Shown here piece after piece: positions 12,001 through 15,000 of a stretch of 43,137 nt of DNA. Position numbers: made by a program. How positions within the stretch are numbered: position 1 is the stretch's first letter; each line of letters starts with the position of its first letter. The stretch lies in the IMG/VR virus record IMGVR_UViG_2721755646_000007. The stretch is one strand, 5' to 3'. This DNA comes from a virus (Duplodnaviria > Heunggongvirae > Uroviricota > Caudoviricetes).

Positions 12001-15000
12001 CGGAACCAAAAAGCATGCGAGCTCTGCCGTCCGGGGTTGTACCTGCCGTTCACCAGCCGCTGGCGGAAGATAAATCACTACTGCCATTTTTCAGCGATGA
12101 GCGGGTGATCCGTGCTGCGGGTGGCGCTGGTGCACTGTCTGACTGGTTATTACGTCACGTGAAATCCTGCCAGTGGCTACACGGTGATTATCATCACAGC
12201 GAAACCGTCATTCACCGTTACGGTACCGGCGCGATGGTGTTGTGCTGGCACTGCGACAACCAGCTGCGGGAGCAGACATCTGATTCACTGGATCAACTTG
12301 CTCAACAGAATCTGGCCGCCTGGATGATTGACATCATCCGTCACGCAATGAATGGCGCACAGGAGCGTGAATTATCTCTGGCTGAATTATCCTGGTGGGC
12401 GGTCCGCAATCAGGTGGCGGACGCGCTACCGGAAGCGGTATTACGTCGTTCGCTGGGGTTGCGTGCGGAAAAAATCCGCTCCGTATACCGTGAAAGCGAC
12501 ATCATACCGGGAGAACAGACCGCCACCAGCATACTGAAGCAGCGCACAAAAAATATTGCGCTACCGCCTCACACCCACCAGCAACAGAACCCACCACAGG
12601 AAAAGACGGTGGTCAGCATTGCCGTTGATCCGGAGTCTCCGGAATCCTTCATGAAACGACCTAAACGTCGCCGCTGGGTAAATGAGAAATACACACGCTG
12701 GGTAAAGACACAGCCGTGTGCGTGTTGTGGTAAGCCAGCGGACGATCCTCATCATCTGATTGGTCATGGTCAGGGCGGAATGGGAACAAAATCCCACGAT
12801 ATTTTCACGCTACCGCTGTGTCGGGAGCATCACAACGAGCTTCATGCGGATCCGCTGGCGTTCGAAGAAAAGCATGGTTCCCAGGTTGATTTAATTTTTC
12901 GTTTTCTTGATCACGCCTTTGCAACCGGCGTGCTCGGGTAAAAGAGGTTACTGATGCGTATAGAGTTTGTTTTGCCTTACCCGCCGACGGTGAACACCTA
13001 CTGGCGACGTCGTGGCAGCACATATTTTGTATCAAAAGCCGGTGAGCGTTATCGCCGGGATGTGGCACTTATTGTTCGCCAGCAGCGGCTGAAATTAAAC
13101 CTGTCCGGAAGGCTGGTGATAAAGATTATTGCAGAGCCACCGGATAAGCGCCGTCGTGACCTGGACAATATCCTGAAAGCACCACTGGATGTGCTGACGC
13201 ATGCCGGACTTCTCATAGACGACGAGCAGTTTGATGAAATCAATATTGTGCGCGGTCAGCTCGTTCCTGGTGAGCGGCTGGGGATAAAAATCACAGAACT
13301 GGAGTGCGCATGAATAACCACTATTTACAGTTTGTGCGTGAGCAGCTCATTATCGCCACCGCTGATTTGAGTGGGGCAACAAAAGGTCAGCTTGAAGCCT
13401 GGCAGGAGAATGCCATGTTCGATACAGGGCGTTACAGGCGAAAAAAAATCCGGTACCGCGATGAAGTGACTGGAAAAATGATAACGCGGGATAATCCACC
13501 AATCCCGGGAAAGCAATCGCTGGCGAAGGTGACGTCAATTCCTCTGGTCAGTCCGGTTGAGTTTTCGACATCATCGTGGCGGCGGGCTGTTCTGTCTCTT
13601 GAAGAACATCATAAAGCCTGGTTGTTGTGGTGTTACAGCGGGAGTATTTGTTGGGAATATCAGATCGCGATAACACAGTGGGCGTGGAATGAATTTAATA
13701 CTCAATCCGGTACCAGAAAAATTGCAGGGAAAACGCAGGAACGCCTGAAAAAATTAATCTGGCTGGCGGCGCAGGCAGTAAAAGCAGAACTTTTTGGTGG
13801 GGAAGGTTATGAATACAAGGAGCTGGCATTACTGGTGGGAGTGACAACTAAAAACTGGTCCAAAACATTTACTCGTCACTGGGTTGCAATGAAACACATT
13901 TTTCACCGACTGGATAGTGAGGCTTTATTGTTTGTAATGAGAACGCGTTCAAAACAAAAGGCGGCATTTTCAAAGCAAAGTGTTGCAAAAGTAGATTGAA
14001 AGGCATATATTTCATGCAAATCTGATATTTTGCCGATTTTGTACGTGATGGCAAAAGCAAACAAAACCCGCCCACAAGCGGGTTTTTTTGTGCCACTTAT
14101 CTCGGATAGACATGGTGAATGCGCTGGTGGAGGAAGTAAGGGTAATTTTTAACCAGGTGATTCTTGAATGCTTGCAACATTGATTTCGTAACGTTATTAT
14201 CCTGCGCCCGGCCCTTTAGCTCAGTGGTGAGAGCGAGCGACTCATAATCGCCAGGCCGCTGGTTCAAATCCAGCAAGGGCCACCATCACATACCGCCATT
14301 AGCTCATCGGGATAGAACGCCAGCCTTCGAAGCTGGTTTCGCGGGGTTCGAGTCTCCGATGGCGGTCCATTATCGGTATTCTGCGTTTTTAGCTCAGCAG
14401 GACAGAGCAATTGCCTTCTAAGCAATCGGTCACTGGTTCGACTCCAGTACAACGCGCCACACTTATTTTCCCGGCTCGCTTTTGCGGGCCTTTTTTGTAT
14501 CTGCGCCACGCCCGGCACATACCAACCACAGAGCCTTTCGGGGGGGGGGGAGCTTACGGAGTGGTCAGTGTGACTTTCTCTGTGGGCAGATCGCTCCCGG
14601 GCGTTGGCTCACCCACCCAAAGGAACGTCACGATGTTTGGTATTTTTGGTAAAAAAAGCCCGCAGAGCGGCAACGGAAATTAAAAAGTTTGAAAAACGCG
14701 ATCTGGCACAGGTGGTGATTAACGCCGCATACCTGGTGGCCTGTGCAGATGGTGAATGTGAGGCATCCGAGAAAGCGAAGATCGAACAGGTACTGCGTAA
14801 TCAGCCTGCGCTGTCCGCGTTTACGTCAGAAATTAATGCGATTAGCGCAACCATTATCGGTCAGCTGGATACGAACTTTAAAACTGGTCGTCGTGCGGCG
14901 TTACGTGAGATCGAGGATGTGAAACACGATACGCGTGAAGCGGAAGATGTGCTGGATGTGGCGGTGGCCATTGCGGAGGCAGACGGCGAAATTGAGCCGG

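Follow-up and report, generated by a model that had tools for sequence, protein, structure and literature searches.

Two long guanine tracts in a lambdoid prophage of Escherichia coli O157:H7: a likely leader expansion, a cos-region element and targets of ISEc20

Two long guanine tracts were analyzed in a lambdoid prophage of Escherichia coli O157:H7 (IMG/VR virus record IMGVR_UViG_2721755646_000007), a stretch of 43,137 nucleotides (nt) referred to below as the window. A run of 11 guanines (G11) is located upstream of a gene for a TerB-family protein, and a run of nine (G9) is located between an HNH endonuclease gene and the terminase small subunit gene (terS). Our reading, to which we give a probability of roughly 0.6, is that both tracts are hypermutable runs in non-coding DNA of the late operon, that G11 is an expansion within a leader and G9 a feature of the cohesive-end site (cos) region, and that the two runs have served as targets of the insertion sequence (IS) ISEc20 and as end points of a deletion. 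A preliminary description of this DNA had proposed G11 as a length-dependent switch of TerB expression. We regard the tracts as unstable homopolymers with no demonstrated switch, for which a listing as a phase-variable promoter is not warranted.

Length variation of the two tracts

G11 and G9 were found where they had been reported, the latter after the HNH gene, on the plus strand, and they are the only runs of G or C longer than seven bases in the window. Given that the number of G runs drops about three- to fourfold with each extra base (26 runs of G5, nine of G6, two of G7, and none of G8), runs of 9 and 11 are clear outliers. The 9-mer of G (GGGGGGGGG) had four matches, compared to a mean of 0.60 in 100 dinucleotide-preserving shuffles, two of which reached four. 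G9 starts 8 nt after the stop codon of the HNH gene (21438-21440) and lies 273 nt before terS (21731), and it is not tied to any gene start. Two G7 runs and one C7 run are located at 36783-36789, 38061-38067, and 38629-38635, in the A+T-rich right part of the window.

Tract length was the sole difference between otherwise identical E. coli copies of the G11 locus, in which G9, G10, G11, G12, G14, and G16 were read directly, and the G9 locus ranged from G7 to G13 in related contigs, with phage records differing by the same few bases. These observations bear out the earlier suggestion that the tracts are prone to slippage. A 133-base query limited to the leader had matches in 770 of 5,426 complete genomes, from which 60 rows were picked at even steps and tract lengths were inferred from match lengths. 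Runs of G8 to G15 were found in 34 of the 60 (G8 in 1, G9 in 3, G10 in 10, G11 in 7, G12 in 5, G13 in 5, G14 in 2, and G15 in 1) and the other 26 were of G7 length or shorter, in a sample that is biased towards G11 because the best place per genome was taken against a G11 query. IMG/VR and metagenome contigs carried G6 (12), G7 (24), G8 (1), G9 (4), G10 (3), G11 (2), G12 (2), G14 (2), and G16 (1), and the range at the G11 locus across near-identical sequences was G6 to G16. E. coli strain TR01 is identical to the window at 14380-14780 yet has G10 for the window's G9; it differs elsewhere (tract variation and mosaicism), and it was dropped as a copy of the same prophage for counting differences because it is mosaic elsewhere in the 43 kb.

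This variation fits slipped-strand mispairing, which would be its probable cause. Mononucleotide tracts of this kind are known from phase-variable contingency loci, including the poly-G promoter spacer of porA and the poly-C tract of opc in Neisseria meningitidis and the poly-G/C genes of Campylobacter and Haemophilus. The tracts resemble these loci in having a G run of at least 9, in varying in length between close strains, and in their expected slipped-strand mutability. They differ in that G11 is located in neither a promoter spacer nor a reading frame and is a derivative of GGGGGTG, not a conserved repeat, and no on/off consequence can be derived from the G-tract sequence. A literature search for poly-G tracts in O157 prophages returned nothing relevant.

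Most of the complete genomes are long-read assemblies, and the heterogeneity could in principle be mostly an error of sequencing or assembling G homopolymers, the tracts being stable in vivo. One cattle isolate series differs at the tract only (G10 to G14), which is the pattern expected of miscalls and of slippage. However, the short states G5TG, G6, and G7 segregate with linked substitutions, both G7 and G9 were seen in short-read metagenome contigs, the older phage records of HK97, HK022, HK75, and mEp234 differ at the cos run (G9-G13), and IS-less deletion junctions occur with G5, G7, or G9. The linked substitutions, the short-read contigs, and the older phage records argue against all of the variation being artefact, and a predominantly technical origin is considered unlikely. 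Assemblies of O157 and other enterohaemorrhagic E. coli (EHEC) genomes will disagree at both tracts, which should not be treated like markers of the single-nucleotide polymorphism type.

Origin of the G11 tract

Comparison of alleles indicates that G11 is a derived state with GGGGGTG as its ancestor. The commonest states among left-flank matches (n = 129) were CCTTTC-GGGGGTG-AGCTTACGG (50) and CCTTTCA-GGGGTG-AGCCATAGG (26), and every copy from Citrobacter, Pantoea, Franconibacter, Pseudescherichia, and Enterobacter read ...GGTGAGC. Eighty loci were chosen by TerB protein similarity and, being relatives of 96-99%, were used for tract length and not for covariation. The T was kept in 41 of them (as GGGGGTG, GGGGTG, or AGRGGTG), while 23 had G6, 11 had G7, and a run of at least 8 was present in 4; the long tract is not maintained across homologous loci. 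GGGGGTG or AGGGGTG was found in 39 of the 80 and in all of the non-E. coli genera.

Since T-containing states are the most common and are present in all of the non-E. coli genera compared, the long tract is taken to be derived, and the alleles compared point to G11 as a recent, lineage-specific expansion. Starting from an ancestral leader CCTTTC-GGGGGTG-AGC, loss of the T or its replacement by G would have given G6 or G7, and replication slippage would then have produced G8-G16, mainly in EHEC prophages. Another long run (A-G11) belongs to a leader variant of another type, found in phage Evi and at locus L090.

ISEc20 insertion and the deletion between the tracts

In the PPompW phages of O145:H28, ISEc20 (IS110 family) is located exactly between CCTTTC-G7 and G5-ATCATCCGGCG, which are the left half of the G11 locus and the right half of the G9 locus, respectively (L009:3168-4616 in PPompW_132418). 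TerB through HNH is absent from these phages, a 6.9-kb deletion with end points at both tracts, and the deleted segment in relatives contains TerB, an esterase gene, lysis genes, and HNH. Junctions of the same type without an IS (CCTTTC-G5/G7/G9-ATCATCC) were found in six complete genomes, O145:H28 RM12581 and RM13514 among them, and in one viral contig, and many O145 genomes have the IS beside G5-ATCATCC. A second, variant IS is present at the G11 locus in L189.

Flanks of ISEc20 were collected for 23 IS ends at 20 loci (19 from IMG/VR, L010-L028, and the PPompW record), representing 16 distinct contexts. The left flank was G4-G7 in 13 of the 16 contexts, the readable right flanks all started with G (G1-G5), and orientation was constant, always on the G strand relative to the IS. 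In three copies, the preceding sequence is ...TAACG, similar to the element's own end. At the site in the SASA esterase gene, 13 empty alleles read GGGGGGTGGG and one had G10, and the occupied allele was G6, IS, G5; the window has the empty form GGGGGGTGGG at 16142-16151, and no ISEc20 was found in the window. On these flanks, ISEc20 inserts nearly exclusively into G runs, and runs of approximately 10 G are its specific target.

Read in the direction of the element, ISEc20 has at its left non-coding end C5 and G6 runs that are enclosed by a stem (CCAGACCCGG/CCGGGTCTGG), and a second region of this end contains matches to the two termini of the IS, GGTAAC and TAATAGGGG. An outward TTGACA is present at the right end. 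No Rfam match was found in the ISEc20 region. [quoted passage not shown] The left end of ISEc20 has this layout and is predicted from its sequence to specify a bridge RNA, in which the C5 and G6 runs would pair to the target in a guide-like manner. As described for IS621 and its relatives (PMC11208160, PMC11208158), ISEc20 uses one kind of target in one orientation, its left-end loop runs are complementary to both target strands, and its second loop matches the termini. It differs from them in that its target is a homopolymer and not a unique sequence resembling repetitive extragenic palindromes, so that the IS boundaries and the core are ambiguous. Searches of the literature for ISEc20 and for IS110 elements with homopolymers returned nothing relevant. 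The use of runs of about 10 G as ISEc20 targets and deletion end points would explain why PPompW-type prophages of O145:H28 have repeatedly lost the lysis/HNH region, and such runs would offer the bridge-recombinase field a natural homopolymer target.

G9 as part of the cos region

G9 lies in an HK97-like packaging module, after the HNH gene and before terS, a position as expected for an HK97-type cos. Phage HK97 carries GGGGGGGGGATCA, with 13 bases the same as in the window, ending 42 nt before the right cohesive end. In HK022 (G9) and in HK75 (G13, cos annotated), exactly 42 nt separate the end of the run from the right end, and in mEp234 (G11) it ends the same 42 nt before an HK97-type end sequence, although this record starts elsewhere. 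A Serratia relative has GGGGGGAGGGG at the same position. The record of phage Lys8385Vzw, which has the window's terminase type, starts at the equivalent of 21502 and is flagged as circular. This position is 44 nt after the G9 run and 229 nt before terS and is followed by an A-tract (A6, 21512-21517); in HK97, the terminase small subunit (TerS) binds an A-tract at +15 to +29 (PMC11331095). By analogy, a cos cut is likely about 44 nt downstream of G9. GACACCGCGCCCCC precedes this putative cut, near 21501/21502.

Because of the fixed 42-nt distance in the HK97 family and the start of the Lys8385Vzw record, G9 is assigned to the cos region. As judged from these alignments, it is a conserved, length-tolerant element on the last-packaged (right-end) side of an HK97-type cos. 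It would represent an old cos feature at a fixed distance of approximately 42-44 bp upstream of the cohesive-end cut, with G9-G13 tolerated by viable phages, and conservation of a G run at this distance from the cohesive end extends from HK97 to Shiga toxin (Stx)-type phages. Two other roles were rejected. G9 as the cut itself was discarded because no phage record ends there and the cut is placed 42-44 nt downstream, and G9 as the TerS binding site was discarded because TerS of HK97 binds beyond the cut as seen from the run, at +15 to +29 (PMC11331095). No mention of a G run was found in the HK97 terminase papers checked (PMC11331095 among them). An alignment of the HK97 and window HNH proteins, made to reach distant packaging modules, returned a C-terminal fragment only and was dropped.

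By analogy with phage lambda, in which cosQ is a packaging-termination element upstream of cosN, a cosQ-like function of G9 is a guess; cosQ is cited among the references of PMC10359639. Like cosQ, G9 is short and conserved and keeps a fixed distance to the cohesive-end cut, upstream of it, at the last-packaged end. Unlike cosQ, it consists of a G run and ATCA, is variable in length, and accompanies an HK97-like terminase with an HNH partner; in addition, the TerS site mapped in HK97 lies across the cut from the run (PMC11331095).

Four or five copies of (A)TGTTAAC(Y)GG were observed at 21535-21655, between the putative cos cut and terS, two of which form GTTAACATGTTAAC. These repeats may be binding sites for terminase or a host factor.

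The leader and the TerB start codon

Approximately 125 bases from 14503 to the start codon are strongly conserved and are always preceded by an intrinsic terminator (tR' or a tRNA terminator). Two TerB subfamilies that share only 39% identity carry this leader upstream, as does one unrelated gene. An alignment was built from 23 distinct leaders of E. coli, Citrobacter, Pantoea, Franconibacter, and Pseudescherichia. The leader was also observed in Enterobacter. Examples of leader copies in general are L038:6482-6620, L031:11552-11688, and L213:2866-3004, and at L042, L088, L095, and L105 its 5' half only is joined to other modules.

Complementary segments of the leader include GCGCC/GGCAC (14503-07/14514-18), CCACAGAG/CTCTGTGG (14526-33/14578-85), and GGAGTGGTC/GATCGCTCC. 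CCTTTC (14534-39), directly 5' of the G tract, faces AAAGG, its complement within the Shine-Dalgarno sequence (14619-25), and the tract together with AGC faces GGCTCACCCACCC (14606-18). The tract is the 5' strand of a helix (GGGGTGAGC/GCTCACCC) that is 96% paired across leaders, and in a pseudoknotted model 96.6% of cells were in standard pairs, compared to 39-47% when the partners were slid by 1-3 columns. A secondary structure of the leader is plausible on this modeling. Rfam scans at gathering and E-value thresholds, run on the window and on the ancestral variant L038, returned no match at the tract or leader. More divergent leaders were sought via TerB protein loci, an approach that returned relatives of 96-99% only. 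A leader that matches no Rfam family and is present in several Enterobacterales is a useful by-product of the analysis.

G11 had been placed about 83 nt upstream of the TerB-like start. It does end 82 nt before an ATG (14633, favorably spaced at 7 nt after AAGGAA), but this ATG is out of the TerB frame and opens 16 codons only, with a stop at 14683, because the A run at 14651-14657 is A7 in the window allele. Relatives with A6 or AAAAAGAAAA read from the ATG through into TerB (ATG...AAAAAG CCC for A6, or ...AAAAAGAAAACCC), and among 80 TerB-similar loci the run was A7 in 43, A6 in 16, and of the interrupted form in 21. TerB is rescued by the RefSeq start TTG 14637, with the first few residues alone changed. 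The A run is a more direct candidate than G11 for altering TerB expression.

Alternative explanations for the G11 tract

According to the preliminary description, G11 would sit within the TerB promoter or leader, and changes in its length could switch expression. In a promoter, gain or loss of G would shift hexamer spacing or activator phasing and turn transcription on or off, which is classical phase variation of the kind known from Neisseria porA or opc. The tract is long enough to slip, it varies between strains, and it precedes the ancestral start codon by 82 nt. It does lie inside a leader, which is conserved; its position in a promoter was not supported. No sigma-70-like hexamer pair spanning the tract or between the tract and the start codon was found by a scan for sigma-70-type consensus sequences and direct reading of 14525-14632, so that neither a -35/-10 pair with the tract as spacer nor any promoter-like site from the tract to the start codon is present. 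In addition, the region is G+C-rich and conserved as a post-terminator leader, most homologous cassettes lack the long tract, which is a derived state, and the ancestral ATG is out of frame in the window allele. Switching of a TerB promoter by G11 is accordingly considered highly improbable.

In the reading preferred here, G11 would be transcribed within the leader, from Q-dependent pR' read-through or from tRNA-terminator read-through, and would be located in the 5' arm of a helix, the 3' arm of which ends beside the Shine-Dalgarno sequence. Given this location, any effect on TerB would act via RNA folding and be graded, not on/off; such an effect of tract length is possible. A specific form of it is that longer tracts pair with CCCACCC (14612-18) and place CCUUU (14534-38) on AAAGG of the Shine-Dalgarno sequence, which would lower translation of TerB and DUF3927, with G11 at the midpoint of the predicted transition. 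In ViennaRNA, the probability of CCUUU:AAAGG pairing was ~0 for GGGGGTG to G7, 0.01-0.49 at G9, 0.05-0.90 at G11, 0.50-0.97 at G12, and ~0.9 or more at G13-G14. The trend was kept in 9 choices of transcript ends, with predicted accessibility of the Shine-Dalgarno core decreasing 1.5-2.5-fold, and it agrees with the 96% pairing of the tract helix across leaders. In the window-type leader the CCUUU/AAAGG pairing is predicted for long tracts only, and in two other leader variants the minimum-energy fold already pairs these segments. Against it, the case consists of thermodynamic modeling alone, the window folds no better than shuffles (z = -0.31), covariation is minimal, the predicted effect is modest, and TerB initiation in the window allele is already compromised by the A7 frameshift. 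Control of translation by tract length in this manner is considered doubtful. A G run on the non-template strand could also act on elongation, through an R-loop or an RNA:DNA hybrid G-quadruplex as modeled on the G run of human mitochondrial conserved sequence block (CSB) II, and throttle read-through of the late operon in a length-dependent manner. The tract directly follows a terminator and belongs to the strand that is coding throughout the late operon, and G11 is long enough for a two-tier quadruplex; however, lambdoid Q-modified RNA polymerase resists pauses and terminators, and inducible phages tolerate comparable runs at cos. This effect on elongation is barely credible.

It is quite improbable that all of the more specific proposals hold jointly, namely that the leader is an undescribed structured cis-regulatory RNA in which tract length sets sequestration of the ribosome binding site, that runs of approximately G10 and longer are programmed ISEc20 sites, and that the cos run is cosQ-like. 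If this were true, one slippery tract would couple the tuning of moron expression to IS-driven inactivation of the lysis/packaging region.

Several points weigh against our overall reading of two hypermutable runs with separate settings. Part of the length variation may come from homopolymer miscalls in long-read assemblies. The cos position was inferred from the start of a record flagged as circular and from analogy with HK97. With regard to the deletion, ISEc20 may have inserted after it, or two ISEc20 copies or a recombination mediated by ISEc20 may have generated it, with excision following. The two competing models of the leader have one compensatory pair each, and shuffles often reach the observed scores. 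Finally, an unusual or activator-dependent promoter could exist even where no consensus promoter is found.

Gene order around the tracts

The gene order (Table 1) was taken from the RefSeq annotation of the identical segment, combined with ARAGORN, Rfam, and Pfam results and a scan for promoters and terminators. The 401 bases around G11 (14380-14780) have 100% identity with E. coli strains TR01 and FRIK1989. The promoter-like site and tR'-like terminator at the end of the Q gene are the probable source of Q-dependent transcription through everything downstream; weak isrK/isrJ-like Rfam matches are present at 14015-14088. The SASA esterase gene and the lysis genes are located between the STnc100 match and the HNH gene.

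Table 1 Features of the window around the G11 and G9 tracts
Feature	Position	Strand	Basis
Antiterminator Q coding sequence	13310-13999		RefSeq, identical segment
Late promoter-like site, TTGCAA-17-TATATT	13983-14011	+	Promoter scan
tR'-like intrinsic terminator, directly after the Q gene	14063-14089	+	Terminator scan
Promoter-like site of the tRNA unit	14172-14200		Promoter scan
Three phage tRNA genes (Met/Ile-CAT, Arg-TCG, Arg-TCT)	14210-14459	+	ARAGORN, Rfam, RefSeq
Intrinsic terminator, GGCTCGC TTTT GCGGGCC then T6, ending the tRNA unit	14473-14496	+	Terminator scan
Conserved leader of the TerB-family moron	14503-14632	+	Leader alignment
G11 homopolymer	14540-14550	+	
Ancestral ATG, 16-codon open reading frame	14633-14683	+	Direct reading, allele comparison
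TerB-family coding sequence, start TTG 14637	14637-15065	+	Pfam PF05099, RefSeq
DUF3927 coding sequence, overlapping the TerB coding sequence	15062-15229	+	RefSeq
STnc100 RNA, downstream of the moron	15234-15406		Rfam, above gathering score
HNH endonuclease gene, HK97-type packaging module	21075-21440	+	Pfam PF01844, RefSeq
G9 homopolymer, then ATCA	21449-21457	+	
Putative cos cleavage region, cut near 21501/21502	21486-21517		Analogy with the HK97 family, Lys8385Vzw record start
Terminase small subunit gene terS, followed by terL	21731-22294	+	Pfam PF03592, RefSeq

Stx phages have sequence in common with the window only to ~14507, after which stx follows, and TerB/DUF3927 are therefore at the moron site downstream of pR', a site described for lambdoid and Stx prophages by Tree et al. 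(PMC4104026). As at that site, TerB/DUF3927 take the position of stx after Q, tR', and the tRNA genes, and STnc100 and a convergent small RNA region follow at 15234-15406. The small RNAs described there are downstream of the moron coding sequence, whereas the leader upstream of TerB and the G tract were not described (PMC4104026). Anti-small RNAs of the AgvB/AsxR type were ruled out as the identity of the tract region because they are located downstream of the moron coding sequence (PMC4104026), a position that corresponds to the vicinity of STnc100 in the window.

Further small RNA matches in the window, above the Rfam gathering score like that of STnc100, were the sok antitoxin RNA adjoining hokD at 11120-11294 and DicF at 4223-4274 (minus strand).

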